Source of the DNA: a virus
Lineage: Duplodnaviria > Caudoviricetes
Direction: 5' to 3' (one strand)
Length of the DNA: 51,976 nt
Virus record (IMG/VR): IMGVR_UViG_3300012909_000006
Span: 1-51,976 of that record
Shown: piece by piece, positions 1 through 24,100 of the stretch
Layout of the letters: each line of letters starts with the position of its first letter
Position numbering within the stretch: position 1 is the stretch's first letter
Notes under the pieces: model-generated
Database searches by the model: none
The model's input: the letters and a program-made list of their open reading frames with translations, nothing else
Told to the model about the DNA's origin: nothing
Translations under genes and position numbers: made by a program

Positions 1-448
1 GCTTGATCAACTTCTCTGCGATCTTCTTGGTGGTCGGCTTTAGTTCGTTGGTGGTCTCATGCTGATGACTGGAATCGATCAGTCGCTTGGTCTTGCCGCG
101 CGCCGAAAGCTTGAGTGTGTATTCGTTCGGCCCGATGTTGACCGACATTGAACTGTCGCCCTTGGTCTCTTGATTCTCGGTATCGGTGCCTGCGGTCTCA
201 TCCTTGCCTTTCTTGGCGCCGGTACCCTGCCGCTTGTCGACGGTCCCGGTGAACGCCAGCTGGCCAGCGATGTAGCATTGGATCTCGGCACCGGCTTTTG
301 CCGCGCGCGCGATCGGTGCCGACGGCATTGCACCAGCAAAGATCGTTACGTTTAACGTCCCGGTCATTTCCTCCTTGCTGCGTTGCAAGGTCATGTCGGT
401 CCAGGTAGTTAGTTCGCTGCCGCCGACCAGGATGACAACCGGCTTCAT
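1..448 (-). CDS. Mu gp44-like baseplate hub/tail protein (runs off the left edge of the window)
   Basis: Read manually: ATG at 448 overlaps the upstream stop (ATGA); MKPVVILVGGSELTTWTDMTLQRSKEEMTG...LSARGKTKRLIDSS; follows the DNA-circularization gene as in Mu. Confidence 0.75.
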   Translation of the reverse strand, partial: MKPVVILVGGSELTTWTDMTLQRSKEEMTGTLNVTIFAGAMPSAPIARAAKAGAEIQCYIAGQLAFTGTVDKRQGTGAKKGKDETAGTDTENQETKGDSSMSVNIGPNEYTLKLSARGKTKRLIDSSHQHETTNELKPTTKKIAEKLIK

Positions 449-1641
449 GATGTCGGCGCGACACCGACTACCAACGGATTGAACCGGCCATTGGCGTCGA
501 CCCTATTACGTTGCTCCAGTTCGCGATGTCGCGTGGCATTGTTGTAAATCACATAAGACGCGACCAGCGGATGCACGCCGCCCATGAAGTCGACCGCGAC
601 CAAACCCGGCAACCGGTAGGCCAGGTCATTCATCATCTGGGTGAACTGAGTGGCGTAGTTTCGAATCTCCAGGAACAGTGCATTGTCGCAAGCGTTGTAA
701 GCGGCCTGTGCCTCATCGGTGAGTACCGCAAGGGTAGCATCCAGCGCTGCCAACGCCTGATCGACGTAGGCATAGGTCCGTGACATTGCCGCTTCCGCCA
801 TCCCGATAGCCGCCAGGACACGATGGCGGCTTAGCACCGCTTCCTCACTTTCGACGGCGGCCCCCGCCGGCAAAGTCGAGGAAGCGGTCGCCGCGTTGGC
901 CAACCGCCTCATAGTACGAAATTCGACATCCGGATCCTCGATGTGAATTGGAATGGTGTAGAAACCATTCGACAACGCACGATCGACATTGGTCGCTATG
1001 CTCGCCAGGCCATCGTCTTGCGCCACCTCATCCATCCGCAAAATATCTCGATGCTCGGAAGCTGGCGCATCCGGTGGCACCACTTGCTTGGTGACGTTGG
1101 CGGTGACCTGCACCAGCCGCTGCGCGGTATCGATGACGTCGCCGCGCCACGGCTGCGACACTAACGCCGGCCGATAGTCGCGAATGAAACTTGCCCGCGA
1201 AGTCGCGTTCAACGCCGATGAAATCATCCCGAACAGCATGCCGCCGATGCCAGATCCGACCGGATTGGCCTCGACAAATTCCATCTCGGCGGTGGTCTCG
1301 CCTTGGGCTTCCTCCAGCTTGTCCGAAACCTTGACGCTGCGACATGCGACCAGGTGCGTACCGCGTGTCGGATGCACCAGCATGCCAGGCTGTGGCGACT
1401 CGCACGCCATGAACAGCGCACTAGCGTCGCCGATGTGATCGTCTTCGCGGAAGTAGGCCGTCAGATGAAAGACGCGGATCTTGCGCCCCAAATCGGCGTA
1501 GGCCGTGGTTTCCGAAAACGGAAATTCTCCCTCAGCACCGCGCCGGCCGCCCTCGATGTCGGCATCGCTGCAGTAAAATTGCACACCTTTGAAGCTGGCC
1601 GGAACGACGTCCTTGCCAATGGCGCAGTTAGTACGGGACAT
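445..1641 (-). CDS. Mu-like DNA circularization protein (gp43/N family)
   Basis: N-terminal PASFKGVQF...GGRR...EFPF...DLGRK...LVHPTRG motif; lies directly after the tape measure. Confidence 0.88.
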   Translation of the reverse strand: MSRTNCAIGKDVVPASFKGVQFYCSDADIEGGRRGAEGEFPFSETTAYADLGRKIRVFHLTAYFREDDHIGDASALFMACESPQPGMLVHPTRGTHLVACRSVKVSDKLEEAQGETTAEMEFVEANPVGSGIGGMLFGMISSALNATSRASFIRDYRPALVSQPWRGDVIDTAQRLVQVTANVTKQVVPPDAPASEHRDILRMDEVAQDDGLASIATNVDRALSNGFYTIPIHIEDPDVEFRTMRRLANAATASSTLPAGAAVESEEAVLSRHRVLAAIGMAEAAMSRTYAYVDQALAALDATLAVLTDEAQAAYNACDNALFLEIRNYATQFTQMMNDLAYRLPGLVAVDFMGGVHPLVASYVIYNNATRHRELEQRNRVDANGRFNPLVVGVAPTS

Positions 1642-4571: not shown

Positions 4572-4755
4572 TTATTTTGGTTTTCCCCCGGCCAGGATCA
4601 TTCGGTTTTTCATTTCCACCGCGTGAACGCGCTGGAAATTTAGAATGCGAAACGTCAATTGTCTGATGGTAAGCGGCCTGATGTCGCCAGCCGATGCCGA
4701 GTAATAGCGATAGTGCTCGACAGCTTCCGCTACTCGTCTGGCGACCCCAGAAAAC
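4572..4755 (-). CDS. Tail assembly chaperone -1 frameshift extension (gpGT/E'-like)
   Basis: The -1 frame is open from CGT TTT C (about 4750-4756) to TAA at 4572, abutting the tape-measure ATG; no own start; reads ...VARRVAEAVEHYRYYSASAGDIRPLTIRQLTFRILNFQRVHAVEMKNRMILAGGKPK. Confidence 0.7.
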
Positions 4756-5362
4756 GCGGCAGGATCTCATTCATGATGAACACGCCATCAGAAATCGTGA
4801 TGACATCGATCGCCCATGACGGCAGCGCCGTCAGCGAAGTGCCGAGCGGCTTGCCAAGCTTCTTGATCATCATGACGGTTTGCAGCACGCCATTGTCGGC
4901 CGCCATGATGTCCTCGACGTCACCATAGGTCGAGGCATGAAACTCCAGCTCGGTAATCGCCGGCTTGCCGGCGCCGGTCGGAATGGGCGTGCCGAGTTCG
5001 TAAGTGATCGCCTTGTCCATCCCGTCGCCGTCGCGGACAATCTTGCCGGCCGGCGCCTCATCCGCGTCAAGCCGTGCAATGATGCTGCGCGCATCGATGA
5101 TCGACAGCTTCGGGATGTCCATGATCCCGACCGGCATCACGGTGCCGTTGATATAATACTGCACCTGCTTGGCCATCCGCACCCGCCGCATGCGGGCCAG
5201 CCAGGCCTCGGGCTCTTTCATGCCTTGAGCTTCGGTGACGATATTGGAGAACGCCTGAAACGTCATCGGCCGCACCACCGCGCCGTCGATGACGTTTTCG
5301 CCAAGCTGGAATGAGATCGGAATCTTCTCCAGCTTGGTCCCGTTTACTTTCCCCTCTGCCAT
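4730..5362 (-). CDS. Tail assembly chaperone
   Basis: Between tube and tape measure; GGGAG RBS before ATG 5362; ends PRFLGSPDE. Confidence 0.75.
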   Translation of the reverse strand: MAEGKVNGTKLEKIPISFQLGENVIDGAVVRPMTFQAFSNIVTEAQGMKEPEAWLARMRRVRMAKQVQYYINGTVMPVGIMDIPKLSIIDARSIIARLDADEAPAGKIVRDGDGMDKAITYELGTPIPTGAGKPAITELEFHASTYGDVEDIMAADNGVLQTVMMIKKLGKPLGTSLTALPSWAIDVITISDGVFIMNEILPRFLGSPDE

Positions 5363-5372: not shown

Positions 5373-5819
5373 CTATGCCGCCACCGCGAATGTCGGCGTG
5401 ATCGGATTCGCCGTCGACTCCAGCGTACCGTTCGGCAGCATTTCATCGATCTCCTTGAACGAGACCGTCATCGTCACTTCATGGGTGTCGGATTTTTCGT
5501 CACCGGTACCGGTGCCCTTGACCCCGGAGTAGACCAGCCCGTTGTAATATTCGACCTGCAGATTGACGTCACTACAGCCCTGATACATCGCGAGCGGGAT
5601 CCGGATGTCCCGGATGACTTTGATCTCGACCTCCGGATTGGTCGGCTGCCGTTTGACATAGCCTTGCGGCAGCGGATCATTGTTGTAAGGGCAAAGCCGC
5701 CAGGTCGGCAGATCTTCCGAGCTGAGCTTGTGCGCGATCGGCCCATAGACGGCGTCGGTGTCGCAGTCCTTGAAGGTAAGCAGGATGTTTTTGACGCCGA
5801 CTTGATTTTCACAGGTCAT
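5373..5819 (-). CDS. Tail tube protein
   Basis: 148 aa directly after the sheath; strong AAAGGAG RBS. Confidence 0.75.
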   Translation of the reverse strand: MTCENQVGVKNILLTFKDCDTDAVYGPIAHKLSSEDLPTWRLCPYNNDPLPQGYVKRQPTNPEVEIKVIRDIRIPLAMYQGCSDVNLQVEYYNGLVYSGVKGTGTGDEKSDTHEVTMTVSFKEIDEMLPNGTLESTANPITPTFAVAA

Positions 5820-5846
5820 TTGACTTCTCCTTTCTATGGTTCGGCG

Positions 5847-7364
5847 TCAGCAGTTGCTGAGCATGGCCGGTTGCGCGTTGATGGTGATGTTGGAGATCCG
5901 GACCGGCGGTCGATAAACGAAATCGATCCACAGTTTGCCGGGAATGCCCTGGCATTTCGGCGCCCGCTCGAAATCGGTCAGCAGTTTGATGTCCTGATCG
6001 ATGTCATCGAACTCCGAGAACAGCACCCCGATGTTCGACTTGGCCCAGGCACGGAACTGACCAAGGATCAGTTTCGGATTGGTGCCGCGGATGCCGGCAG
6101 GGATCGTGGTGTTCTTGGTGAACAATCCCAGACCAACCACCTGGTTGAGCGCAATCGCCGCCGCGTCGGCCGTGGCCGCTGCAAGCCGCCGCGAATTCAC
6201 ATTCCACCAGGTCGAGTTCAGGCGACCATTCTCATCGTAACGGTTGTTGGTGATGTCGTTGACGATCATCGGCGCCGTCATTGCACCGGTACCGCCACTA
6301 AGCGGAACGGTGACGACGAACCCCGTAGCCTGCATCACCTGCTGTTCCTCGAACGTAAAGCACTGGAAACAGCTTTCCGGAATGCGCAAGCAAGACAGCA
6401 CGCCGAAGTTCGGGCCCTGAATGCTCATCTCCGGATTGTCGACCGTCAAGCAGCAGCTCTGCGCGGCGTAGGCCGCCACCTTGAGCCAGCCAAATGACGG
6501 ATCTTCGCAGCAATGCGCCAGCCGCGACACTTCCGCCGAGTTGGTGAAGTTCGAAATGATCTGACCGAAGGTGCCGGAATTGTAGGTGTAGCCATGGCCA
6601 AAGCACTGCGGCTTCATGCAGCTCCAGGCATCAGCGATGTAGGCGATCATCGCATCCTGCCACTTCGGCGAGTCGTACAGCATGCCGATGCAGCAATAGC
6701 AGCACTCACCCAGGATCGAAGCATAATCCGGTGGCGGGATGTCGACGTTGACGCCTTCTGTCAGCTGTACGAACTCCATAGTGACGCCTTGCGGCGCATA
6801 GTCGCGACGTTCATGCCAATTGTAGATGGCATTGACACAATTGCCGACGGTGCCGCCGTTCTTTGCCGTCAGGGTGATCACAGCACCAGCCGCTACCGAG
6901 TCGAACGGGAAGCCGGGCTCCAGCGCCAGGTATTCGTTGACCTGGGTGGCGATCTCGTCGGCCGTCATGCCCTCGGTAACACGAACGCTGGAATTCCAGC
7001 GACCGTCACCGATAAAGATGTCGACCCGACCATCGCTGGTTGCCGGCCCGGTGAAAGTCATCTCGTAAGATGCTTTCTGCTGCGCGCCGACACTGAGATC
7101 CTTGTGCGGGAGCGCGTAGAATTCCATCGCGCCATTGGCACAACAGCCGAACGCGGTCTTCATCGACTCCGCCAGCACGCTGCCATAACCGAACAGCGTA
7201 TCGATGTCGCGCAGCGACGGGATCTTGATCAAAGCGCCGTCGATCGCGGTGCCGCTGTCGAGCATCTGGCCTTCCATCAGGATACGGCACTTGTTCGGAT
7301 AGGCGTTCAGCGCATCCGAGAAACAGATCCGGATCGCACCGGACCGCAGGCTGTCAATCGACAT
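5847..7364 (-). CDS. Mu-like tail sheath protein, Cys-rich
   Basis: FGYGSVLAES and ITLTAKNGGTVGN motifs typical of Mu gpL-type sheaths; 505 aa. Confidence 0.85.
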   Translation of the reverse strand: MSIDSLRSGAIRICFSDALNAYPNKCRILMEGQMLDSGTAIDGALIKIPSLRDIDTLFGYGSVLAESMKTAFGCCANGAMEFYALPHKDLSVGAQQKASYEMTFTGPATSDGRVDIFIGDGRWNSSVRVTEGMTADEIATQVNEYLALEPGFPFDSVAAGAVITLTAKNGGTVGNCVNAIYNWHERRDYAPQGVTMEFVQLTEGVNVDIPPPDYASILGECCYCCIGMLYDSPKWQDAMIAYIADAWSCMKPQCFGHGYTYNSGTFGQIISNFTNSAEVSRLAHCCEDPSFGWLKVAAYAAQSCCLTVDNPEMSIQGPNFGVLSCLRIPESCFQCFTFEEQQVMQATGFVVTVPLSGGTGAMTAPMIVNDITNNRYDENGRLNSTWWNVNSRRLAAATADAAAIALNQVVGLGLFTKNTTIPAGIRGTNPKLILGQFRAWAKSNIGVLFSEFDDIDQDIKLLTDFERAPKCQGIPGKLWIDFVYRPPVRISNITINAQPAMLSNC

Positions 7365-7397
7365 CAGGTCTCTCCTTTTGAGCGGTTGGTGGTGGGA

Positions 7398-7682
7398 TCA
7401 GGATTTCGGATAAGGCGCACCAGTTCCTGGTGCGGGATCTTCCGCGGCTTGCGTGGTGTTCTTGGCCGTCGGAATCGGACGCGTCTCCGAAATCGGACGC
7501 GGCTCTTTCGTTTTCGGTCCGCCAGTTGGCAGGTCGCCCTGCACTTCCAAATCATCCCAGCGATTGATGAGACCGCGGATGTAGGGAATGTCAGCGACCG
7601 GGACGAACCGATCCTGCGGGAGCATGTTGCCTTCGTAGGGGATGCTACGGCCCGGACGGGCCTTGACATAGATCATGGCCAT
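7398..7682 (-). CDS. Small pre-sheath protein (Mu gp38/DUF2635-like)
   Basis: MIYVKARPGR...YIRGLINRWDDL; AAAGGAGG RBS; sits just before the sheath. Confidence 0.65.
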   Translation of the reverse strand: MAMIYVKARPGRSIPYEGNMLPQDRFVPVADIPYIRGLINRWDDLEVQGDLPTGGPKTKEPRPISETRPIPTAKNTTQAAEDPAPGTGAPYPKS

Positions 7683-7717
7683 CTCGGGCCTCCTTTGCGG
7701 TTGCACGGTAGTAAAAC

Positions 7718-8341
7718 TCATGGACACGGCTGACATTCGTCCTGCGGCTCCGGACACTCAGGCTCGGGAATGCAAGACTCCGGGATGCACATCCGGAATC
7801 CGATGTCGCTGATCAGATCCATCACAACTTGTTCGTCTTTCATGCACCATTGGAACGTTGCGACGAACGTAAAGGTCAGCCGCGCCGCCAACGGATCGGC
7901 CTCGACCTGCAGACGGCGATAAGCAACATGCTCGCCGTTCGGACCTTTGAACTTCGAAAAGCCTTTGATCAGTCGATTGCGGATGAACTCATACGGATAG
8001 TAATTCCAGTACGGCGTGTCCTTGCCGGTGGCCTTGCTCTTGATCCGCATCGGCTGCAGCCAGAAATCGACCACGAACGTATCAGTGAGCTTGAATTCTT
8101 CGCTCGACGAACGCAGCAATTGCTCGCCGGTCGAGTTGGTGAACGCGACCAGCACCAGCGGCAACGTCGGAATATTTTCCATTGTGATGTCGACGTCGCT
8201 GACCGCCACTGATCGCGGCGGCGCGTTTAGATCAAGCGGATCGTGCAGCATCGGATAAAACCAGTCGGCAATCGCAGCTGCCACCGCCGGCAAAAATCGC
8301 TTTTCCTCGTTCTGTTCGGACTCCGGTGTTCTGGCGTCCAT
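7718..8341 (-). CDS. Putative tail terminator/completion protein with Cys-Pro-rich C-terminus
   Basis: Neck-module synteny; ends CIPESCIPEPECPEPQDECQPCP. Confidence 0.55.
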   Translation of the reverse strand: MDARTPESEQNEEKRFLPAVAAAIADWFYPMLHDPLDLNAPPRSVAVSDVDITMENIPTLPLVLVAFTNSTGEQLLRSSSEEFKLTDTFVVDFWLQPMRIKSKATGKDTPYWNYYPYEFIRNRLIKGFSKFKGPNGEHVAYRRLQVEADPLAARLTFTFVATFQWCMKDEQVVMDLISDIGFRMCIPESCIPEPECPEPQDECQPCP

Positions 8342-8733
8342 TACAGCCTCGACCATTCAACCCAGCGTCCGAGATGGCTGCCTTGCATGCCTTCCTTGAG
8401 CGCTTCCTTGCTCATCTTGCGGCCGGTATCGGCAAGCCAGGATGAATAGTGGAAGCTGCTGTTCTTTCCCGATCGTTTGCCATCGCTGCTGATCGTCATC
8501 GTATTCGCCGTGACCCTGGTCTTGATTGTGCCGAGCAAATTGCCGCTACGTCGCATCGGCCATTCACCAGGTGACGATCCCTTGGCATCACCACCTGGCC
8601 ATTGCCGGCTGGCACCAGAACGGAATGCCGCCTCGGACGCGTTCGCGACTCGGTGCAGCCAGTTCTGAATTTCGGCATTGTTCTTTCGTGCGTGGAATGG
8701 ACTCCACGGCACGAATTCGAGGGTCAGGCTCAT
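8341..8733 (-). CDS. Putative neck protein (HK97 gp10-like)
   Basis: SSPGEWPMRRSGNLLGTI resembles the S.PGE.P...TG.L..SI motif; synteny. Confidence 0.6.
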   Translation of the reverse strand: MSLTLEFVPWSPFHARKNNAEIQNWLHRVANASEAAFRSGASRQWPGGDAKGSSPGEWPMRRSGNLLGTIKTRVTANTMTISSDGKRSGKNSSFHYSSWLADTGRKMSKEALKEGMQGSHLGRWVEWSRL

Positions 8734-8735
8734 GG

Positions 8736-9158
8736 CTAGATTTGCCTGTCTTCCGCAGACAGCAGATTGCGCGGCGGCGTGACTTCGGTCGACTTCTCGA
8801 CCAGGTGCGCATGCAACACGATCCACGGCGTGTTGTCGTAAAATCCCATCACCTTGTACCAACGCGGCGGTGACTTGCGCCTGACCTCGTACACCCATGC
8901 TGCCGACGTGAAGTCGAGATCGACCTTGTAACGCATCGTGATCCGGTGCGTGACCCGGTTCTGACTTTCCTTGACGGCGTAACCATAGGGCGAAATGAAC
9001 GAAGGCAGATTTGGCAGCGCGTAGATCTTGGCCCAGATGGTGGCGACGGGCTCGCGTGTCAGTGACATGGTCGCGGAATTCTCGACCACATCGTGCATCG
9101 TGCAGAGCGACACCCGATGACTGAATTCCGTCAACCGTGGTTGGATGACGTCAGGCAT
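8736..9158 (-). CDS. Head closure / head-tail adaptor (SPP1 gp16-like)
   Basis: HRVSL...TIWAKI...THRITMRY pattern; synteny. Confidence 0.7.
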   Translation of the reverse strand: MPDVIQPRLTEFSHRVSLCTMHDVVENSATMSLTREPVATIWAKIYALPNLPSFISPYGYAVKESQNRVTHRITMRYKVDLDFTSAAWVYEVRRKSPPRWYKVMGFYDNTPWIVLHAHLVEKSTEVTPPRNLLSAEDRQI

Positions 9159-9862
9159 CAGATCGCACTGTCATCGTAAAGCCGCCAGGTCTCCAGTGCG
9201 CCGGAGACCATAGCGATGTTGTTGGATCCGGAGACGCCGCCGATCTTGGTTGAATTGTCCTTTCGATTGCGCTGGGTAAGCAGCTCATCACCGGGATGCT
9301 CGACAACCCAGGCGAGATACTGCAGACAACCGAGCACGATTCCGGCCGGCACTGAATTCGGATCCTTATAGCCCGCCTTGTAAGCCACCATCATGCCGCC
9401 GTTGAGATGCCAGCTGGCGCACGGATCACAGCAGTTCGACAGATCGATGAAATCCTTGACGATCGGCACCTGAATGACACGCGTCCCGATCGGAACATGA
9501 AAGGTGCGATTGTCGCTCGGATGCGAGCCGCCATACAAATAGACGTAACCATCGGCGACCGGATATTTCAGTTCGTGACGATAGGTGACCCGCCCCGGCC
9601 GCGGATGCGCCGGTCCCTCAATTGGTTCGGTGACCGTGCGCTGGCAGGCCAGCAATTGCCCGGTATACATCTCGGCCGATTCCAGTGCCGCGGCCCGATA
9701 CAATTCCAGTTGCGCATCGGTGACCGCTGGAATGTCATCGGTCTTGGTGTGGCTGCGGATAACGTCGATCGACAGCCGTTCCGACCAGTCAAACTTCTCC
9801 AGCCTCTGGTCAGGCTCGAACGGTGGCCGTTCGCGCGGTCGCGGGGGCACCATCCTCAGCAT
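9158..9862 (-). CDS. Head-tail connector (HK97 gp6-like)
   Basis: AALESAEMYTG and YKAGY...VPAGIVLGCLQYLAW motifs. Confidence 0.75.
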   Translation of the reverse strand: MLRMVPPRPRERPPFEPDQRLEKFDWSERLSIDVIRSHTKTDDIPAVTDAQLELYRAAALESAEMYTGQLLACQRTVTEPIEGPAHPRPGRVTYRHELKYPVADGYVYLYGGSHPSDNRTFHVPIGTRVIQVPIVKDFIDLSNCCDPCASWHLNGGMMVAYKAGYKDPNSVPAGIVLGCLQYLAWVVEHPGDELLTQRNRKDNSTKIGGVSGSNNIAMVSGALETWRLYDDSAI

Positions 9863-10554
9863 TTGGCGATCCCGATATCAAAACAGTCGGTGCGGGTGTA
9901 GCAGATGCATTCGCAATCGAGCGCGGCCTGCAGCACCGTCAGGCGCCAGACCTCGCACAGCTGCGCGGCAGGTGACACCGTGACCGGGAATGAAACAATG
10001 AAGTAGCGCTGATCGACCGTCGCGGGCCCAACCGAAATGTGCGGCGTCTCAGCCATGCTGACTGGATCGATGCCGACAGCAATCATCACTTCAAAGATCG
10101 CGGTGTTGACGCCATCAGACGCCGACACATAGAAGCGTTCCTCGCCGACATAATTGGTCGACGGCATATAGGCAAAGGTACCGGCAGCATCGAGCACCAG
10201 CTTGCCGTGCTTGGCTCCGTACAGCGTCAGCAGCTTGAACGTCAGCGCCGTCAGCTCCGGATCCTTGATCATGTTGGTGAGATCGTTTTCGAGCAGCGCG
10301 TTCATCGGCGTCGAAAACTTCACCTCGGACGTCGCAGCCGGCGGCATGTTGCTGCCGACCGGTGCCGGACAGGTCTCCATCGGCTCGATCATGAATTGCG
10401 GCGTGCAGTGCAGCTCGCCGATCGGCACTGCCCAAGGGGCGTAACCGACGCTGACCTTGGTGGTGGTGCCCGGCTTCAACGCCATCTTCTGACAGCAACA
10501 GGTAAAGCAGCCAGCGTTCGCGGCTTCAATATTCTCGACGGTGAAATGATACAT
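9856..10554 (-). CDS. Cys-rich virion accessory protein with Ig/cadherin-like (Big_9-type) domain
   Basis: HGKLVLDAAGTFAYMPSTNYVGEERFYVSASDG Ig-like signature; 12 Cys clustered mainly near the termini. Confidence 0.65.
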   Translation of the reverse strand: MYHFTVENIEAANAGCFTCCCQKMALKPGTTTKVSVGYAPWAVPIGELHCTPQFMIEPMETCPAPVGSNMPPAATSEVKFSTPMNALLENDLTNMIKDPELTALTFKLLTLYGAKHGKLVLDAAGTFAYMPSTNYVGEERFYVSASDGVNTAIFEVMIAVGIDPVSMAETPHISVGPATVDQRYFIVSFPVTVSPAAQLCEVWRLTVLQAALDCECICYTRTDCFDIGIAKC

Positions 10555-10580
10555 GGCTGCAGCGCTCCGTTGAAAGGAGA

Positions 10581-10606
10581 CCGACGCCGGGGTTAACCGG
10601 CGTCGG
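10581..10606. promoter_or_regulatory. Intergenic GC-rich hairpin (mRNA stabiliser or attenuator)
   Basis: CCGACGCCGG-ggttaa-CCGGCGTCGG perfect 10-bp stem; no U-tail. Confidence 0.5.
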
Positions 10607-10619
10607 GATTCGCGGTCTA

Positions 10620-11243
10620 CTACTTCTTTGGTGCCGCGGTAGGCGGCAGTCCCTGGTCAGGCTTGTCTGGAGCGCCGCCCGGCAGTTCATTGCCCGGCGT
10701 GGCAGGCTGCTGCGGCTTCTGCGCCCAAGCCCAGACCAGTGCGCCTTGCACACTGACCAGCACCCAGGCGCCTTCCTCGGCGTTGACCTTCTCCGGCGGT
10801 GCGGTCGCAATAGCAGTGCCGTGCGGCGTTGCACCGGGAACGATCGGTTGACCGGTGCCATAGTCAGGCCGGCCAGGCAGCGAGTTGTCGATGCCCGGTT
10901 GCGAGCCCGGCAAACCCTGATCGGGACGGAGTCCCCAATTCGGCGGCAGACCCTGCCCTGGCATCGGCGGCAAGCCCGAACCCGGCGGACGGTTACCAGG
11001 ATGGCCACCGCCACCCGGCAGGCCCTGATCCGGTCGGCCGCCCCACGATCCCGGCACCCAGTTGCCCGGATGACCGTAGCCAGGGAGACCCTGATCCGGA
11101 TGACCGTAACCCGGCAGACCCTGATCAGGATGACCGTAGCCCGGCAAACCCTGATCGGGACGGCCGTAACCCGGCAAACCTTGATCGGGTCGGCCGCCAT
11201 AAACCGGCAGCGGATAGCCTTGAACAATAACCCACATTAGCAC
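10620..11243 (-). CDS. Pro/Gly-rich tandem-repeat protein (PDQGLP repeats)
   Basis: AAAGGAG RBS; seven PDQGLP copies, four of them as a 30-bp tandem repeat. Confidence 0.75.
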   Translation of the reverse strand: MLMWVIVQGYPLPVYGGRPDQGLPGYGRPDQGLPGYGHPDQGLPGYGHPDQGLPGYGHPGNWVPGSWGGRPDQGLPGGGGHPGNRPPGSGLPPMPGQGLPPNWGLRPDQGLPGSQPGIDNSLPGRPDYGTGQPIVPGATPHGTAIATAPPEKVNAEEGAWVLVSVQGALVWAWAQKPQQPATPGNELPGGAPDKPDQGLPPTAAPKK

Positions 11244-11407
11244 TCACTCCTTTGTCAGTTGAAATTTTGTCGCGAAAGCCCAGGGGATCCGAAATCATTC
11301 GGGAGGTGATTAGTGATCCGCGCTGAAACAATTTCGAATCCCCCAAGCCTTCAACCAGCGCCGTCGACACAGAGGGGGCCGGGTTTACGGCGCTGGAAGC
11401 CGCTTAC

Positions 11408-11503
11408 CTACGGCGCCGCAGGCGGGCATTGGAAGCAAGGCGGCGTCGCAAGTGTGGTCGCAGCATTGCTGGTGCACCGATTAGTGCATCGGACAACAAT
11501 CAT
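11408..11503 (-). CDS. 31-aa Cys-rich micropeptide (not in the ORF track)
   Basis: AAAGGAGAG RBS; ATGA overlap with upstream stop; MIVVRCTNRCTSNAATTLATPPCFQCPPAAP. Confidence 0.65.
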   Translation of the reverse strand: MIVVRCTNRCTSNAATTLATPPCFQCPPAAP

Positions 11504-11808
11504 GATCTCTCTCCTTTGGATTTACGGTGTTCTTCCTTCGGCTCGAACTGCTTGTTGTAAGCAGTCACCTCGGAAGCCTTCATCGGCCTGGCGTAGCCCT
11601 TGTTGATCAGGTAATTGGCAACGTCAGCCTGCAACACGGCTTGCATGGTTTCTTTTTCCCATTCGATCTTGAAGCTCTCGCTAAAAAATCCGGGACGATA
11701 TTCGAACCATTTGATTTCATCGTTCTGGCCACTGCTGACCAGCATGACAACGCCGATGCCATGATCGGAAATCGGTCTGCCATCATCACCGATAATCAGT
11801 TGATCCAT
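11500..11808 (-). CDS. Hypothetical head-module protein
   Basis: GGAG RBS; overlaps neighbours in the operon. Confidence 0.65.
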   Translation of the reverse strand: MDQLIIGDDGRPISDHGIGVVMLVSSGQNDEIKWFEYRPGFFSESFKIEWEKETMQAVLQADVANYLINKGYARPMKASEVTAYNKQFEPKEEHRKSKGERS

Positions 11809-12194
11809 GCCCGCACTCCGCTAAGTCGGCGCAGCATGCGATCTTTCCAAGCGAGATGCGGACAGACCGTTCGCTTCAATTTCACCACGACTTTCGGGTC
11901 ACCTTTATCGATCTCTTGCATGACACGAATGTAACCGTCGATGTCGGCGGTGAAACTGATCTCGCCTTGCTGTCGAAATACATCGAGCCGCAGCATCATC
12001 GGCGATAGCATTTGCGGCATATCGCCGACCGCCATCTTCTCGCGCACGTTGGCAACATAGGGCGAGTAATCGGCCTCACCCTCCTTGGCAAACACGAACA
12101 GTCGACCAAGTTTTGCCTGTGCCGGTAGCTGGCCCCGGATCACGACTTCATCACCGGGGCCAACACGTAGCGCTCTGCCGATCGCGACGCGCAT
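11796..12194 (-). CDS. Hypothetical head-module protein
   Basis: Tight operon packing. Confidence 0.65.
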   Translation of the reverse strand: MRVAIGRALRVGPGDEVVIRGQLPAQAKLGRLFVFAKEGEADYSPYVANVREKMAVGDMPQMLSPMMLRLDVFRQQGEISFTADIDGYIRVMQEIDKGDPKVVVKLKRTVCPHLAWKDRMLRRLSGVRAWIN

Positions 12195-12196
12195 GC

Positions 12197-12613
12197 TTAC
12201 TTTGGCCCGCCAAGGATCACGACAACTTCAACCTTGCCGGTGTCGCCGGAGACAGGCTCGACCTGGATAAAGGCGTCGGGCTTGCACGGCAGCGTGGCTG
12301 TGCAGACCGAGCCAGCTTTGGTACCGGCCGGAATAACGATCTGCGATTCCGGATTCGGCACGGTGCCCCACGGCGCGCGACAGGTCAGCACTTCCTCGAC
12401 CGGATGCTGTGCGCCGGGCAGGCACGGATCGGCATCGCTCGGCGGTGCCGCGACGACTTCAAAAATCGCGTCGGCCACAATATCCGCAACGACGTGAAAG
12501 CTGAATCCGAAGTGGTTGTGATAACGGATGTCAACCGGAGGATTGAGGTTGACCGCCGTGATCGCTCGCCACGCCAGAACGCCCTGGTTCTGAGAAGCAA
12601 CGTTGATGTTCAT
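12197..12613 (-). CDS. Putative capsid decoration protein
   Basis: Beta-rich 138 aa with 4 Cys, two genes after the capsid; GGAG RBS before ATG 12613. Confidence 0.5.
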   Translation of the reverse strand: MNINVASQNQGVLAWRAITAVNLNPPVDIRYHNHFGFSFHVVADIVADAIFEVVAAPPSDADPCLPGAQHPVEEVLTCRAPWGTVPNPESQIVIPAGTKAGSVCTATLPCKPDAFIQVEPVSGDTGKVEVVVILGGPK

Positions 12614-12653
12614 TTCTATAACTCCATTGATGAAGCTTGATGGATGGATGGCC

Positions 12654-12896
12654 CTATTCGGCCTTGGCCGGTTCAGGCTGTGGCTCGGGCTCGGGCTCAT
12701 CCGATGTCTGAGTGAATTCGCCGGTTCGCATCATCCGGCGAAAATCCTCCTGATCGATGAGCCAGTTGTCCGTCGCAGAATGTGCAAAGCGCTTTTCACG
12801 CTCTTGCCGACGCTCTTGCTGGCGCTCCAGACGCTCCTGGCGCTCCTGCTGAAACCGCTCCTGACGGTCCTTGGTATCCTGGTCGGTGTCGGTCAT
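12654..12896 (-). CDS. Small Glu/Gln/Arg-rich hypothetical protein
   Basis: GGGAGG RBS; QERFQQERQERLERQQE low-complexity coil. Confidence 0.6.
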   Translation of the reverse strand: MTDTDQDTKDRQERFQQERQERLERQQERRQEREKRFAHSATDNWLIDQEDFRRMMRTGEFTQTSDEPEPEPQPEPAKAE

Positions 12897-12925
12897 GCTG
12901 ACCTCCCGCTGGTTTGAGGTTGCGA

Positions 12926-14344
12926 CTACGGACCGACGGTGAGGATGCGCGCCGCCGGGCAACACCCGACAAAGCCGCCGTCCTCAGCGCCGAATACGTA
13001 CTGCACGCACCACGCGGTCGAGCCGCCTTCCCACTGCTCCATCCACAGCGGACGCTTGTTGACGGCATAGTAGGCCGCCTTCCAATTTCCGACCGCGACC
13101 AGGAAATCGCCAGTCGTGAACGGTACGCCATTGGAGCCCTTGGTCAGGCCCTCGGTGGCGTCCGGCAGACAGTTCGAGATCCGGATGTTCTCGCGGACGT
13201 CATTCGGCGAGTAGGTCATCAGACCATCGCCGAACAGGAAGCGACCGTTGCCATCGACCATCGCCGCCAGGTAGGCGAACATGTTCTGATGCATCACCGC
13301 CACCACCGGACCGTATTCGACCGGAGCTGACGCATAGAACAGCCGGAAGTCGATGTGGTTGAACGCAGTAGAGGGGGTCTTCATGATCGGGAAGCAACCG
13401 GCATTCATCCAACCGGCCGGTCCATCGACGCCGCCACCGACCATCAGCGAACGGTTGCGGTTGATGCGATAGGAACGCGCCACCGCATTGTTCATGAAGC
13501 CGAGCAGATCGTAATTGGCTTCGGTGAGCACTTTGCGATTGAAGCAAAACACGCCGCGCCAATCGTAGGTCTGGCCGTTCTTGAACTGGATATTGCCTTC
13601 CGGACCATACTCGGCGTCGCACTTGGCATCGCAGGTGTATTGGCCGATCGCGCCGTAATCCAGGATCTGCGGATACATGAACGATGATTTCGAGACCGTG
13701 ACCGAGTTGTAAAGGTCCAGCAGCTCGGCACATTCGACGATGCAGTTGACTTCGATGCCGAGCATTTCCGGCGCAAACATCGCCGAGTCGAGGCTTCCGG
13801 CTTCGAACGCCTTGCGCTCCATCTCAGTGAAAGAGCGGATGATCTTCTGCTTTGACTCGATGCCGGTCTTCATCAGCTTGCGCACGGCAGAACGATACTG
13901 GGTGCAGTCGACCAGATTGTCCATGTCGGGGACAAAGTCGTCGTGATCACCACCCTTGTGCAGGAAGGCGCGGCGCTGCAGCTCGATTGCCGCCTTGGTG
14001 TCGCTTTCCTTGAGCACGTCACCGCCGCGCACATACGGCGCGTCGATTTCTTTTTTGACCTGGTCGAGCGCCTGTTCAAGCATCTGCTGCTTGGTGGTCA
14101 GCGCGGCATACTCGGCGGCGTGCTTGGCAACTTCGGCACGAATGGTGTCGCTGTCGGCCTTGACGCCGGAGTAGTGGGTGGTGAGATCCTTGAACTGAAC
14201 GTCGATCGCGGCGCGGTTGCTCTCGATGGCGCCGACGATATCGCCGAACTCCTTGCTCAATACTGCCAGTGCGGCATCAGCCGTAACGCGATCGGCCGGC
14301 GCTTCCTTGGTCAGGAACGCGCCTTTCTGGATATGCGTATTCAT
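12926..14344 (-). CDS. Major capsid protein, HK97 fold
   Basis: N-terminal coiled coil (delta-like), MVDGNGRFLF motif; follows the protease. Confidence 0.9.
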   Translation of the reverse strand: MNTHIQKGAFLTKEAPADRVTADAALAVLSKEFGDIVGAIESNRAAIDVQFKDLTTHYSGVKADSDTIRAEVAKHAAEYAALTTKQQMLEQALDQVKKEIDAPYVRGGDVLKESDTKAAIELQRRAFLHKGGDHDDFVPDMDNLVDCTQYRSAVRKLMKTGIESKQKIIRSFTEMERKAFEAGSLDSAMFAPEMLGIEVNCIVECAELLDLYNSVTVSKSSFMYPQILDYGAIGQYTCDAKCDAEYGPEGNIQFKNGQTYDWRGVFCFNRKVLTEANYDLLGFMNNAVARSYRINRNRSLMVGGGVDGPAGWMNAGCFPIMKTPSTAFNHIDFRLFYASAPVEYGPVVAVMHQNMFAYLAAMVDGNGRFLFGDGLMTYSPNDVRENIRISNCLPDATEGLTKGSNGVPFTTGDFLVAVGNWKAAYYAVNKRPLWMEQWEGGSTAWCVQYVFGAEDGGFVGCCPAARILTVGP

Positions 14345-14370: not shown

Positions 14371-15114
14371 TCAGCGCAACGCGCGCATGGCGCGTTCCTT
14401 GAGATCCGTGCAGGCCTTTAACTGTTGGGCAACATCCACCAAGGGATGGTCGGCTTGGCCGATTTGCCGCGCACCAGGCGCCAGCTCATCGAGGAACAGG
14501 TGCTCGTTGGCCTTGAGATAACGGGCCAATTTCTGCGCCTCATTCCTACTCCGACAGAACTCGCCGGCCACCAGGGCCTTTTCGAGTTCTGACAGTGTTT
14601 CGTGTGATTTGATGAAATCCATGGTGGCTTCCGGCTGCGCCGGGAAGGTGACGACGCTGACCTCGATGAGGTTGCCCTGCTTGATCACCAGATATTCGCC
14701 ATCCTTGGACTTGTCGCCGTCGACAAAGGTGAATTCCTCCAGCTCAAAACCGACGGAAAAATTCAGGCCGCCGACTTTCTTGGCGACGATGTAGAGATCC
14801 TTGACGTAGGAGACGTCGAGAAACAGCTGGCCCTCGATGCGCAACTCGTCACCGATCGTCTTCAATGATTCGATATTGCCGGCAACCTGGCGGGTGTTGT
14901 GATGGTTGAGCAGTTTGATGCCGCCCGGACCATTGAGGCCATTGCGCTTGATCGACTTGTCGAACGCGCCGGCCAGCACCTTGTGGCCCATCAGGTCAGT
15001 CTTCGGCGTTGACGCGGTGCCTTTGATGTAGCCGTCTTCCAAAATGTCCGCTGACAGCGTTGCGATATCGAATTCACATTCGACGCGATCACCGGGCTTG
15101 AAGTGCTTGGTCAT
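14371..15114 (-). CDS. Prohead maturation protease (HK97 family)
   Basis: GAFDKSI, LLNHH, FSVGF and EVSVVTFPAQP motifs. Confidence 0.92.
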   Translation of the reverse strand: MTKHFKPGDRVECEFDIATLSADILEDGYIKGTASTPKTDLMGHKVLAGAFDKSIKRNGLNGPGGIKLLNHHNTRQVAGNIESLKTIGDELRIEGQLFLDVSYVKDLYIVAKKVGGLNFSVGFELEEFTFVDGDKSKDGEYLVIKQGNLIEVSVVTFPAQPEATMDFIKSHETLSELEKALVAGEFCRSRNEAQKLARYLKANEHLFLDELAPGARQIGQADHPLVDVAQQLKACTDLKERAMRALR

Positions 15115-16463
15115 GACACAACCCTCATCTTGGCGTCCTTGTCGGCGGGTTTCGGTTTTGGTTCGGCTACGGGCACCTCGGGCGGTGCATCGACCGGCTC
15201 GCCATCGCTGGTCACTGCGGTGCCAGACGACAGCATCACTTGCGGGATATCGGCATTCGGTTCGAAGCCAAGGATCTCGCGCTTCTCATCCGACGTCAGG
15301 AAGTTCACACGGCTCAAGGTCTCGCCGAGCTTGGCGCGGTCTTCCCACATCGCCGGAATGGCATCGTAATCGAAGTTGACCCGCGCACCTGGCGGGCAGA
15401 TCGCTGCCGTCATACCGGCCGCGATCGGGATCAGGTAACAAGGCGCCACGGTGTCCTGCCAGAAGCTGCGGCGGCTTTCCTGGTAATTGCTGGCGTATTT
15501 GGCGCTATCTGCAGATCCCAATCCCAACAAGGCAATTGGCACGCCAAATACGCCAGCAATCTGCCGGGTCATGTCGTCGAGTGGCAGCTTGGTGTGGATG
15601 TCCTTGAGATCGTTGTCGAGCTTATGGACGGTGACGGACGTATTGTAGAGAAACAGCACGCTGCCTGAATAATCTTCGCCAGGCGTGGCGTCCTCCAGAT
15701 GTTTTTTCAGCGCTTCCATCTGCGTTTTCGTCAACGTCTTCTCGGCAGTGACGACGTATTTGACGTTGGGATGTCCGCTGGCGGTGTCGAGCGCGCGCTG
15801 CATCAGTGCATCGATAATGGCGATCGGCTTGGCGATGCTTTCGATCGCAGCCGGCGCCTTGTTATATTCGATCAAACCCGTCAACGACGGGAATGAGATC
15901 TCGGCGCCGTAGGATTCGTTGCGCCCGCGCCGCTCTGCCACGCGGCGCGTAGGCAATGTAATTTTGTCGGCGGTGCTGGTGCCGTATTCATAAGCCTCGA
16001 CGCCGCCGCGATTGTTAAGGATGCCCTTGGTGTATTTGGCAGCGAGCGGATAGATGCCGGTCGGCGTGCCGGTCGAGCCGACGCCGACCTTGAAGTGCGC
16101 ACGGCCATAGAGCATCAGGTTGAGCGAGATCCAGTATTCGAGCTGCTGACTGGTGAAATTTTCATTGGGCGATTTGAGCAGTTCGTTGATCGGCTTCAAA
16201 TTGGCGGGACCGGCCTGATCGGTCTTGTTCTTGAGCGTCGGATCCGCTTCGCAGAACCACGGCACCGCCTGAACAGATGACGCCACGAAATTGGTGATGC
16301 GATACAGCTGCGGATTCTTGCGCTGCGCGGTTTCGGCGGTGACGATCGCGGCTTGCGACAGGAAGCGCACCGGCTGCCCGCCCATCATGACAATAGGCGA
16401 GATCGGTTCATCACTGTCTGCCCGATCTGGTTTCTTTTTCAGGAACAGATCGCGCAGCTGCAT
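15111..16463 (-). CDS. Portal protein (HK97 family)
   Basis: LLKSPNE, LMLYGRAH, IAGVFGVP and LTSDEKREILG motifs. Confidence 0.92.
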   Translation of the reverse strand: MQLRDLFLKKKPDRADSDEPISPIVMMGGQPVRFLSQAAIVTAETAQRKNPQLYRITNFVASSVQAVPWFCEADPTLKNKTDQAGPANLKPINELLKSPNENFTSQQLEYWISLNLMLYGRAHFKVGVGSTGTPTGIYPLAAKYTKGILNNRGGVEAYEYGTSTADKITLPTRRVAERRGRNESYGAEISFPSLTGLIEYNKAPAAIESIAKPIAIIDALMQRALDTASGHPNVKYVVTAEKTLTKTQMEALKKHLEDATPGEDYSGSVLFLYNTSVTVHKLDNDLKDIHTKLPLDDMTRQIAGVFGVPIALLGLGSADSAKYASNYQESRRSFWQDTVAPCYLIPIAAGMTAAICPPGARVNFDYDAIPAMWEDRAKLGETLSRVNFLTSDEKREILGFEPNADIPQVMLSSGTAVTSDGEPVDAPPEVPVAEPKPKPADKDAKMRVVS

Positions 16464-21800: not shown

Positions 21801-22264
21801 CCGTTTAGATCCGCGGAATTATTTTCCTGTTCTGGCGCGGCCTCATCCTGTTCTGACGCGGCCTCATGCTCGATTGCCAGCTGTGGCGCCAGTCGCGCGA
21901 TATCGTCCGGGCTTAGGTAATGGTCGACGGGAACCGATATCACGTTAACGGTTCCAATGAATTGCCCTACGTTGCCGGTCACCTGCATTGGGAGAATCTT
22001 TCCCAGCAGTCCCGCAAACGCCTTGGGATGCTTGCCGGCAAGGTGGAAAAGGTAACCGGTCAAACCGTCCTTTCCCTTTCCGTCGGCGCCGTAGGCTTCT
22101 GCAGCGTCGATTATGCCGCGCTTTAAGTCGCGGGTTAGCCGGTTGTGGATTCCCGCGGTCCGCGTCACCGCCGGCTTATGGCCCGGCAAAAACGTTCCGG
22201 GCTTGCGTTCCAGATCTTGCGTCGTGGCGCGCTTGTCGCGGCGTTCAATGCCAAGTTCCGTCAA
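21782..22264 (-). CDS. Putative terminase small subunit
   Basis: NRLTRDLKRGIIDAAE...GLTGYL...HPKAFAGLLGKILP pattern, which I recognise from small-terminase-like phage proteins. Confidence 0.55.
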   Translation of the reverse strand: MTELGIERRDKRATTQDLERKPGTFLPGHKPAVTRTAGIHNRLTRDLKRGIIDAAEAYGADGKGKDGLTGYLFHLAGKHPKAFAGLLGKILPMQVTGNVGQFIGTVNVISVPVDHYLSPDDIARLAPQLAIEHEAASEQDEAAPEQENNSADLNGKSSQD

Positions 22265-22326
22265 TCCCTTAAACTCCGCTAGTCTAGAGGAACCGTTCCG
22301 CGTTACATGCCAGATATTAAAGCACG

Positions 22327-22351
22327 AAAAAACCCGCCATTACAGCGGGTT
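22327..22351 (-). terminator. Terminator closing cassette 8
   Basis: AACCCGC-7 nt-GCGGGTT stem with a U-run on the minus strand. Confidence 0.7.
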
Positions 22352-22390
22352 ATTCCACATTGCCTATCGCACGGTAAAACTTTGTTCCTG

Positions 22391-22708
22391 TCAACCCCCT
22401 ATTTTGAGGACATTGAGCAATTCGCGGCTTTCGACCAATGCGGCCTCAATGGCCTTAGAGCGCAGCGCGATCACCGCGCGATCGTTCCGACCGTTGCGGA
22501 CGTCACGACGGTCCGAACGGGTGACAATCGTTGCCCGGTCAACCCGGACCGCTTGCGGCTTGTCGCCGTTGAAAAGCACGCCGAGATTCACGCTAGGCCA
22601 TACCATGATCATGGCGCCCGAATTGTTCGTTGCCAGCGCGCTTTCCAGCTCCGCAATGTTGGACTCAATGGTTGCGGTCAAATCGGCTTTTAGGTTGATT
22701 GCGTTCAT
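22391..22708 (-). CDS. Hypothetical protein, cassette 8
   Basis: AAAGGA RBS downstream of the repeat promoter. Confidence 0.7.
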   Translation of the reverse strand: MNAINLKADLTATIESNIAELESALATNNSGAMIMVWPSVNLGVLFNGDKPQAVRVDRATIVTRSDRRDVRNGRNDRAVIALRSKAIEAALVESRELLNVLKIGG

Positions 22709-22740
22709 GGTCCGGTTCCTTTGGTGTGGCGCCGCGGCGC

Positions 22741-22839
22741 CGTTTCGATAAACCAAATCTAGTATGATATACGTATCACGTCAAGCCCGGAACCAAATTT
22801 ATTTTGGCAACAAAAAAGCCCGGCTCAATTGCCGGGCTT
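22741..22839 (-). promoter_or_regulatory. Cassette junction: terminator (22812-22839) plus promoter P8 (divergent copy)
   Basis: Minus strand: GCCCGGC hairpin with T6, then TTGACG-17 nt-TAGATT. Confidence 0.8.
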
Positions 22840-22842
22840 GCT

Positions 22843-23055
22843 TCACTTCTCAACTACATATTTTTGGTTCAAACATTCCGGGCGGTTTTTATGTTGCTGG
22901 CAAAATTGATATCGCGGATAACCGATAAAGTAAGCGCGCGACCATTCTTCCGCATATGACATTCCCGGAACTCTTTCCGGCGCCCGTTGTCCGCCGGCAA
23001 AACCGAACGCCGCAAGAATGAAGCAAACCGCAATAGCGTGAAGCGAAATTTTCAT
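22843..23055 (-). CDS. Small signal-peptide protein, cassette 7
   Basis: MKISLHAIAVCFILAAFGFAG; ATGA overlap. Confidence 0.55.
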   Translation of the reverse strand: MKISLHAIAVCFILAAFGFAGGQRAPERVPGMSYAEEWSRAYFIGYPRYQFCQQHKNRPECLNQKYVVEK

Positions 23056-23273
23056 TTTCCTATTTCCTTTCCCGGCAACCGATAGGCCTGCAATCCCTCA
23101 TGACCCCATGCCGGATCATTCCGCAACGCGTGCAAGCATGAATGCCCGTTCCAGATCCGCGCATCGTACCAATAGATACAAGCAAGGCGATCTTTCCATT
23201 CCCGCCCGTGCTTATAGGCAAAAGCCTGCAACGCCGCGGTTTCATCAGCTGTCAATTCCCGGATCTTAGCCAT
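23052..23273 (-). CDS. Hypothetical protein, cassette 7
   Basis: GGAG RBS; ALQAFAYKHGREWKDRL...LHALRN. Confidence 0.7.
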   Translation of the reverse strand: MAKIRELTADETAALQAFAYKHGREWKDRLACIYWYDARIWNGHSCLHALRNDPAWGHEGLQAYRLPGKEIGK

Positions 23274-23351
23274 TAGCGCGCTCCGCCGTCACAAAAGTTC
23301 CGGACCAGTGCATTCAGGATTGCGTTAATCAGTTTCATTTGCTGTTCCCTT

Positions 23352-23450
23352 CGTTTCGATATCCATTAGTTAGTACGTATCGCGTAACATGTCAAGCGCA
23401 ACCGGGAAACATTTTCAAATAAAAAAAGCCCGGCTAACTTGCCGGGCTTT
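23352..23450 (-). promoter_or_regulatory. Cassette junction: terminator plus repeat promoter P7
   Basis: Core GATATCCATTAGTTAGTACGT 23358-23378; GTCAAG 23391-23396; hairpin 23421-23450. Confidence 0.85.
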
Positions 23451-23453
23451 CGT

Positions 23454-23987
23454 TTACGCTGGCGTCAGATCAAATTTTTCGCCTAGCCATTTAACAAACG
23501 CTTTCGGTTCCTCACCGAGTTCAAACGCTTGCGCCGTTCGTTCCTCATGATCCGTTACCAGATCCGAATAGCACCATTGCCGGCTTGCCTGCATCCTGCA
23601 ATCGTTTTGGAATTCATTGAATAGGTGGCGCCGCGCGACCAATGACGCCACAGCATGCGGCGCCGGCAATTCAATTCCGCCGATTGTTTGCGCGCCGTCA
23701 ACCGGGACATAATCCAAAATCATTGGAATCACTTCCCAGTCATAGGAAATGCCGTCAAAAAAATCCCGGTCATGTTTGGTGCAAATATCGTAAACACTAA
23801 GCGCCCATTGCCCCAATTCAATCGACCAATGGCGCAACTCCGCGGATCCGGTATTTTTTCGCAACGCTTCCCAGTCCGCGCGCGTTGTCGCTCCGCCTAC
23901 GCCTAGCGTCTTATCGTTGATCCATTCCCAGACGCAAAGCGCGGCCTCAACTTCAAGATAGGAAAATTTTGTTTCTTCCGTTTTCAT
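23454..23987 (-). CDS. Hypothetical protein, cassette 6
   Basis: GAGGG RBS before ATG 23987; fills the space from promoter to terminator. Confidence 0.75.
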   Translation of the reverse strand: MKTEETKFSYLEVEAALCVWEWINDKTLGVGGATTRADWEALRKNTGSAELRHWSIELGQWALSVYDICTKHDRDFFDGISYDWEVIPMILDYVPVDGAQTIGGIELPAPHAVASLVARRHLFNEFQNDCRMQASRQWCYSDLVTDHEERTAQAFELGEEPKAFVKWLGEKFDLTPA

Positions 23988-24002
23988 GGTCTCGTTTCCC
24001 TC

Positions 24003-24100
24003 ATTTCGATATCCATTAGTTAGTACGTCTTGCATATCACGTCAAGCCCGGATCCGAAACTTTTGCAAATAAAAAAGCCCGGCTAATTTTGCCGGGCTCT
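24003..24100 (-). promoter_or_regulatory. Cassette junction: terminator plus repeat promoter P6
   Basis: Core 24008-24028; GTCAAG 24041-24046; hairpin 24071-24098. Confidence 0.85.

Follow-up and report, generated by a model that had tools for sequence, protein, structure and literature searches.

The Agrobacterium phages Milano, 7-7-1 and OLIVR4 (genus Schmittlotzvirus; PDB 8FOP, 8FOY, 8FQC, 8FWC, 8FWG, 9HZ7, 9HZ8) are the closest known system to the locus described here. In the portions of the published reports drawn on here, the capsid, neck, collar, tube, sheath and baseplate of Milano are disulfide-linked according to cryo-electron microscopy (cryo-EM), with partial confirmation by mass spectrometry (MS) (PMC10491603, PMC10811340). 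Dithiothreitol (DTT) abolishes the resistance of Milano to sonication and to 60 °C heat (PMC10491603), and contraction in vitro required guanidine plus DTT (PMC10811340). Three bonds join sheath subunits to one another; in the contracted sheath, C14-C244 and C216-C327 are intact and C47-C182, the latch, is broken (PMC10811340). The Milano authors tie the network to an Agrobacterium clade, and in the part of the review file consulted they had no results on the origin of the locks or on their release (PMC10811340). Milano and 7-7-1 share ~89% protein identity as published. Here, we analyze a 51,976-nucleotide stretch of a tailed virus (IMG/VR record IMGVR_UViG_3300012909_000006, positions 1 to 51,976; hereafter the window), whose head-neck-tail operon encodes cysteine (Cys)-rich counterparts of these proteins. 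The record is linear and an estimated 74% complete, and it begins inside a baseplate hub gene.

Seventeen of the 20 window open reading frames (ORFs) tested match a Milano protein, and the gene order is identical from terminase through baseplate hub, in a syntenic operon that includes the beta-rich collar (gp13), the minor capsid protein (gp10) and the linker LP2 (gp128). Identity to the Milano orthologues is 28–54% (capsid 54%, sheath 47%, tube 47%), which, judged by protein and not by whole-genome nucleotide identity, falls short of genus-level likeness to Schmittlotzvirus. The only PDB matches of the window virion proteins are to Milano, 7-7-1 and, weakly, Mu. Our AlphaFold model of the sheath (predicted local distance difference test, pLDDT, 80.9) matches the Milano sheaths 8FOY, 8FQC and 8FOP at a template modeling (TM) score of 0.87 (Foldseek E 2e-60 for 8FOY), and the next family is Mu, at TM 0.78. 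Among annotated phages, the sheath is 59% identical to those of Yong-L2-223 and Ssp-JY38 and 45–47% identical to those of OLIVR4, Milano and 7-7-1, and the remaining 34 of 40 sheath records fall below 30%. By sequence, then, the window encodes the head, neck and tail genes of a contractile-tailed phage of the Milano/7-7-1 type.

Because the outer proteins keep the Milano Cys positions, the finished particle is likely to be disulfide-crosslinked from capsid to tail. Our tally covers the 27 Milano bonds for which both proteins are encoded in the window (PMC10811340 Table 1, Table S4 and an MS bond; PMC10491603 Table 2, in the portions available), so that three LP1 bonds and all wedge and fiber bonds fall outside it. 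Both cysteines are kept in 24 of the 27, four of these with a register shift of 1–3 residues (sheath C74 for C73, centerpiece C6 for C5, and neck 1 C145/C148 for C117/C120). In the tail, the kept bonds are tube (2/2), sheath inter-subunit (2/3), sheath 467-501, sheath intra-chain (3/4), tube-centerpiece and terminator-tube; in the head, major capsid (3/3), capsid-minor capsid (2/2), minor capsid-LP2 (2/2) and LP2-LP2; and at the collar and neck, collar (2/2), collar-sheath (2/2) and neck 1-capsid (2/2), with collar-neck 1 at 0/1. Taken together, orthology, Cys conservation and the paired change of sheath cysteines described below make it very likely that these genes specify a disulfide-linked particle from capsid to tail, in which the sheath mesh would be compatible with contraction and any redox trigger would lie in the baseplate. 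The parts, with gene products numbered as in Milano, are as follows.

445..1641, minus strand: baseplate centerpiece, Mu N-like, gp25 orthologue; C6 is the counterpart of Milano C5, which is bonded to tube C19
1641..4571, minus strand: tape measure protein, 976 amino acids (aa); no Cys, an internal control
4730..5362, minus strand: tail assembly chaperone, gp22 orthologue, 210 aa; no Cys
5373..5819, minus strand: tail tube, gp21 orthologue (47%); C3, C19, C43 and C82 at the positions that form C3-C19 and C43-C82 in Milano
5847..7364, minus strand: tail sheath, gp20 orthologue; 20 Cys, which can be arranged as 10 pairs
7718..8356, minus strand: tail terminator, gp18 orthologue; C171 corresponds to Milano C156, which is bonded to tube C3
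8736..9158, minus strand: neck 2 (head completion protein), gp15 orthologue; 1 Cys
9158..9862, minus strand: neck 1 (head-tail adaptor), gp14 orthologue; its C145-x-x-C148 is equivalent to Milano C117-x-x-C120, in a register that is ambiguous in pairwise alignment
9856..10554, minus strand: collar protein, called Ig-like in an earlier note on this DNA, gp13 orthologue; PDB 8FWC, E=2.5e-26
11408..11503, minus strand: 31-aa capsid linking protein, LP2 (gp128) orthologue; Cys 6, 10, 23 and 26 at Milano positions
12197..12613, minus strand: minor capsid (decoration) protein, gp10 orthologue; 4/4 Milano Cys kept
12926..14344, minus strand: HK97-fold major capsid protein, gp9 orthologue (54%); all 10 Milano Cys plus C147
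14371-15114, minus strand: prohead protease; not Cys-enriched
15111-16463, minus strand: portal; not Cys-enriched

Conservation of these positions extends to the relatives of each part. All four tube cysteines recur in 13 of 13 full-length relatives (three in one truncated copy), and the four of the minor capsid protein in 12 of 12 loci. The collar holds all seven Milano cysteines plus five extra (50, 62, 200, 216 and 218), the latter common to eight of eight close loci, two of which are one contig. The LP2 candidate matches LP2 of PDB 8FWG weakly (E=0.03) but occupies the Milano-equivalent place in the operon, with a Shine-Dalgarno-like AGGAG upstream. In the centerpiece, C318 is kept, and its Milano equivalent bonds C3 of the wedge protein BW2. 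In neck 1, D167 replaces the equivalent of Milano C136, which several close relatives keep, and C73 is a residue not seen in 13 related loci. Since C73 and D167 flank an inserted beta-sandwich domain, C73 might provide the collar link instead.

The sheath family allows a closer look at which cysteines belong together. We pooled the best 120 of 309 matches to the window sheath, the best 120 of 244 matches to a Milano-side relative and four named phages; with one duplicate locus and five sequences shorter than 495 aa dropped, this gave 221 sheaths, of which Yong-L2-223 and P0084 are probably redundant. Changes at 23 column pairs were followed on an unrooted FastTree phylogeny built with the Cys columns excluded. 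C14, C249, C221 and C332, the equivalents of the Milano bonds that survive contraction, are invariant (221/221), even across sheaths that are just 45–60% identical. An even number of cysteines is found in 192 of the 221 sheaths, versus 105–120 for each of seven other residues (W, H, Y, F, M, K, Q), a contrast whose nominal significance is inflated by relatedness among the sheaths. Two sheaths reduced to six cysteines (P0160 and P0180) retain exactly 14/249, 221/332 and 471/505, so these three pairs form the core of the network.

Beyond this core, sheath cysteines come and go in twos. As a control, the solved Milano bond C73-C320 was recovered on the tree (9/10 independent pairs, p=0.004), and six unrelated control column pairs changed jointly in just 0.2–1.4 of 8–12 pairs. 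C176 and C286 are both present in 48 sheaths and both absent from 173, with none discordant (10/10 independent pairs, p=0.002); C285 and C335 are both present in 149 and both absent from 72, again with none discordant (8/8, p=0.008); and C225 and C304 are both present in 183 and both absent from 37, with one discordant (~11.5/12, p ~0.0005). The Milano pairs 471-505, 75-305, 222-254 and 47-182 co-occur perfectly, with too few independent changes for significance on the tree. The last four cysteines of the window sheath are best paired, post hoc, as 74-325 and 26-224 (0 and 1 discordant sheaths); the combination suggested by the raw table, 74-224 plus 26-325, was rejected at 3 and 4 discordant, a choice likewise made post hoc. 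The resulting scheme comprises the Milano bonds 14-249, 221-332, 471-505, 222-254 and 75-305, together with 74-325 (Milano 73-320 shifted by one), and four pairs predicted from co-variation, 26-224, 225-304, 285-335 and 176-286. It is concordant in 220 of 221 sheaths, partly because it was fitted to them. The sole discordant sheath keeps C224 and C304 unpaired, without a His replacement.

These patterns bear on whether some of the clusters bind zinc or iron instead, for which the candidates are the terminator tail (C190-C211), the CECIC motif of the collar and sheath positions 26/74/224/225/304/325. The terminator tail, neck 1 and collar do contain CxxC-like and closely spaced Cys motifs, and the solved Milano structures show nothing equivalent to the terminator tail or to five of the collar cysteines. 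Sheath cysteines, however, change in independent twos and not in threes or fours, the pairing scheme accommodates nearly every sheath, and its one exception shows no exchange for His. The homologous motifs of Milano and 7-7-1 (capsid CDAKC, neck 1 CxxC and collar CxxCCC) are moreover modeled as disulfides in the sections cited (PMC10491603 Table 2; PMC12796354). We therefore favor disulfides over metal for the sheath, given the strictly paired gain and loss, and regard metal binding at any of these clusters as improbable. The earlier note had left open a particle stapled either by disulfides or by metal; its first option is very likely, with 24 of 27 Milano bonds kept, and its second is disfavored for the sheath by the paired change. 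Residues 190-212 of the terminator (7718-7790, minus strand) form an acidic, Pro- and Cys-rich C-terminal extension that is conserved in 11 close loci, looser in Yong-L2-223 and L014, and absent from Milano, 7-7-1 and OLIVR4. This extension could hold a metal, or connect the terminator to the five additional collar cysteines.

A recount of the translations, protein by protein, reproduced every Cys count given in the earlier note. The sheath has 20 Cys in 505 aa, with five CC pairs (74/75, 221/222, 224/225, 285/286 and 304/305); the collar has 12 in 232 aa, the major capsid protein 11 in 472, neck 1 five in 234 (including NCCDPC), the tube four in 148, and the terminator six in 212, every one within residues 171-211. 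The tape measure has none in 976 aa, nor does any of 12 related ORFs (several partial), nor Milano gp24 (0/778). The chaperone has none in 210 aa counted from the ATG at 5362; a longer ORF from 5446 would add two, but 5362 is the likely start, since four relatives (64–89% identity) have ORFs of 210–211 aa. Two members of the network that the earlier note did not list, the minor capsid protein and the 31-aa linking protein (four Cys each), lie within the span it covered.

Overall, 11 virion proteins hold 75 Cys in 2960 aa (2.53%), versus 70 in 7085 aa (0.99%) for a set of 30 further ORFs picked by us as likely real genes (Fisher p=1.9e-8), which rules out a genome-wide Cys bias. Against this background, enrichment is clear for the sheath (p=3e-7), collar (p=4e-6) and major capsid protein (p=0.008) and marginal for the tube (p=0.06) and neck 1 (p=0.08), and a Cys-free tape measure would arise by chance with a probability of 6e-5. 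The earlier note had described an enrichment specific to the outer shell. The overall contrast and the Cys-free tape measure and chaperone agree with that description, but the portal (3 Cys/450 aa), neck 2 (1/140) and baseplate centerpiece (5/398) are not enriched. We also carried out the comparison of Cys frequency with other sheaths that the note had called for: five distant Mu-like sheaths, from among 34 distant annotated-phage records, hold 1–4 Cys in 491–500 aa (SfV 2, phiAP1 4, PBb001 1, phiNP 1, EPP-1 2), versus 20 in the window sheath. One might argue from the three unenriched proteins that the cysteines are a compositional accident or functionless inherited baggage. Invariance at 45–60% identity, gain and loss in pairs, the excess of even counts and a background of just 1.0% all speak against this, and we consider it extremely unlikely.

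Several observations weigh against a disulfide-linked particle of the kind proposed, or against details of its wiring. Three of the 27 bonds are lost: sheath 47-182 (K47 and R186 here), sheath 26-303 (V308) and collar-neck 1 (D167). LP1 (gp16, the Ig-bearing linker) was not matched by blastp or by motif in the first 20 kb of the window; among 16 loci, only Milano and 7-7-1 have it, the window record being incomplete. C176 was scored after merging two adjacent alignment columns, a choice made post hoc, and the sign test for 285/335 would on its own fail a Bonferroni correction for the 23 pairs. The pairings 74-325 and 26-224 were likewise chosen post hoc; the raw table alone puts 74 with 224, and on the tree the pairing of position 26 with either 224 or 308 does not reach significance (p=0.25). 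Co-variation is also blind to whether a bond lies within or between subunits. Finally, a Pfam scan of 56 ORFs of this ~74% complete record found no thiol oxidase or reductase family, and no PHROG name for a disulfide catalyst appeared among 30 ORFs, neither search extending to small ORFs or to the quarter of the genome that the record lacks.

The last of these points shapes our view of how the bonds would form. The cytoplasm is reducing. Because of this, and because no thiol oxidase was found among the 56 ORFs, the disulfides would probably form on exposure to air after lysis. A particle crosslinked in this way would likely be more resistant to shear and heat. The proteins that have to be ejected or that are not part of the particle, here the tape measure and chaperone, are free of Cys. 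The sheath pairs 26-224, 225-304, 285-335 and 176-286 would most likely stiffen each subunit from within.

Whether the tail is also locked by a disulfide is a separate matter. Both partners of the Milano latch C47-C182 are missing from the window sheath, where K47 and R186 stand in their place. The latch is found in nine of 221 sheaths, in one clade whose members are all at least 70% identical to Milano, and corresponds to one change on the unrooted tree, where gain appears likelier than loss. Given that the latch residues are absent and that the inter-subunit bonds that are kept stay intact in contracted Milano, the window sheath could probably contract with none of its own bonds reduced. The redox-gated sheath contraction proposed in the earlier note has a precedent in Milano, which needs DTT, but the gating bond is missing here, and redox gating at the level of the sheath is not supported by the sequence. 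Such gating would have to act through another bond or through the baseplate; the wedge genes are not part of the window, and neither are the receptor-binding genes that would bear on flagellotropic infection. A trigger in the baseplate, if there is one, would fit with the kept centerpiece C318 and with the Cys-rich wedges of the close relatives L005, L006 and L015 (BW2 with 24 Cys, BW3 with 20-25, in partly cut ORFs), in which BW2 C3 is kept.

One candidate for another bond is C176-C286. In an otherwise disulfide-linked particle, C176 in the extension domain could bond C286 in the body domain of a neighboring subunit and so replace the C182-C47 latch. The pair joins the same two domains as that latch (domain limits from the relevant section of PMC10811340), co-varies perfectly over 17 changes on the tree, and never occurs together with C47/C182 (0/221); moreover, the C176 and C182 sites hold nearly all extension-domain cysteines in the family. 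Yet 164 of 221 sheaths carry neither pair, so neither is needed in the family, and clade structure by itself would lead one to expect that the two exclude each other. In the secondary structure of the model, a core strand precedes C286, and C176 sits in a conserved loop by the base of the extension domain, a topology that would fit a bond within one subunit. We thus consider a replacement latch unlikely. The same low odds attach to the broader idea that redox locking is a switchable trait, with an invariant mesh (221/221) to which the Milano clade added C47-C182 once while a Bradyrhizobium-associated branch toggled C176-C286 at least 17 times. If C176-C286 does turn out to be inter-subunit, near-identical phages with and without the lock would form a natural experiment on the in vivo trigger of a disulfide-locked tail. 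Our preferred reading is still a sheath stiffened by C176-C286 within each subunit and free to contract.

The nearest named relatives, among the matches listed, lie in Bradyrhizobium genomes, with sheaths 69–81% identical to that of the window, which itself encodes an integrase and a GcrA-family protein. From these three features, a temperate phage with Bradyrhizobium or a relative as its host is likely. Genes consistent with a temperate alphaproteobacterial phage lie at 39347-40185 and 46879-50802 and comprise a stand-alone TSCPD-domain ORF, the GcrA-family regulator, the tyrosine integrase and three HTH_3 regulators. The window integrase found no match in the genome behind L015; integration of that relative is indicated by the location of its locus on a 303-kb bacterial contig. 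Two phages deposited as Synechococcus phages, L002 (OM868081.1) and H2 (PP438428.1), have sheaths 59% identical to the window's; the other named family members come from Alphaproteobacteria, and the Synechococcus host labels may merit checking.

Other features of the window lie apart from the network. Between the LP2 and collar genes, 10620-11243 (minus strand) encodes a 207-aa, Cys-free protein of PDQGLPG-type repeats, for which we found no Pfam, PHROG or usable ESM Atlas match and no equivalent in the Milano locus. A copy 88% identical occupies the equivalent place in L006, and looser repeat relatives occur in L008, L009 and L012, the last directly after the sheath gene. It is possibly a mobile, disordered or fibrous accessory protein. 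From 22000 to 30000, a block rich in short ORFs has a lower guanine-plus-cytosine content (~53% versus 59%) and carries an ArdC-like anti-restriction gene (24110-25006); at 29555-29720, downstream of primase-region genes, are short tandem repeats with repetitive translations in overlapping ORFs and no clear gene. There are no transfer RNA genes in the window.

How does this phage compare with known systems? A disulfide-stapled virion is not in itself new: the core idea is established by cryo-EM in Milano and 7-7-1 (PMC10491603, PMC10811340, PMC12796354), with MS and DTT experiments on Milano (PMC10491603, PMC10811340), and would not surprise a specialist. Other phages, by description, show that the disulfide strategy recurs. 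Phage Jabs reportedly crosslinks its virion proteins by disulfides for stability. The siphophage tail tube protein gp39 is also crosslinked in the virion for stability (PMC13576161, in part), as is Bacteroides phage PD491P1 according to a citation in the same paper; all of these are non-contractile or different phages. Closer in behavior is the cyanophage Pam3, a myophage with baseplate disulfides in which DTT causes fiber loss and contraction and for which redox-dependent contraction was proposed; unlike the network discussed here, its bonds lie in wedge and fibers and do not run from capsid to tail, in the sections cited (PMC9942802).

What the window extends is the range of the network. It spans more than 200 distinct sheaths down to ~45% identity, in Bradyrhizobium genomes, a Beijerinckiaceae bin and two Synechococcus-labeled phages, and because the nearest named relatives sit in Bradyrhizobium genomes, it is not Agrobacterium-specific. 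Within this sample, a single small clade carries the bond that blocks contraction in Milano, and the bonds that survive contraction are invariant. This distribution bears on the origin and generality of the locks, a question left unanswered in the consulted part of the Milano review file (PMC10811340), and inducible Bradyrhizobium prophages, such as those related ones in B. lablabi or B. elkanii records, suggest themselves as latch-free controls. In the literature searched, which did not cover subscription journals, we found no survey of the wider Milano-like family.

Milano and the window share orthologues of the portal, protease, capsid proteins, LP2, collar, necks, terminator, sheath, tube, chaperone, tape measure and centerpiece; in both the tape measure is Cys-free, and structural proteins average ~2.5% Cys here versus a published 2.1–2.4% in the cited portions on Milano. 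The disulfides of Milano have been seen in virions, and those of the window phage are predicted from its genes. The window sheath has 20 Cys versus 16 in Milano; the latch and C303 are missing, and four other pairs are predicted. The window further differs in its five extra collar cysteines, the Cys-rich terminator extension, a neck 1 without C136, no LP1 found, the PDQGLPG-repeat gene between LP2 and collar, an integrase and Bradyrhizobium relatives, and so likely in lifestyle and host. To the Milano system, the window thus appears to add a rewired variant, one without the Milano latch, with four other predicted sheath pairs and additional collar and terminator cysteines, from a probable Bradyrhizobium phage.

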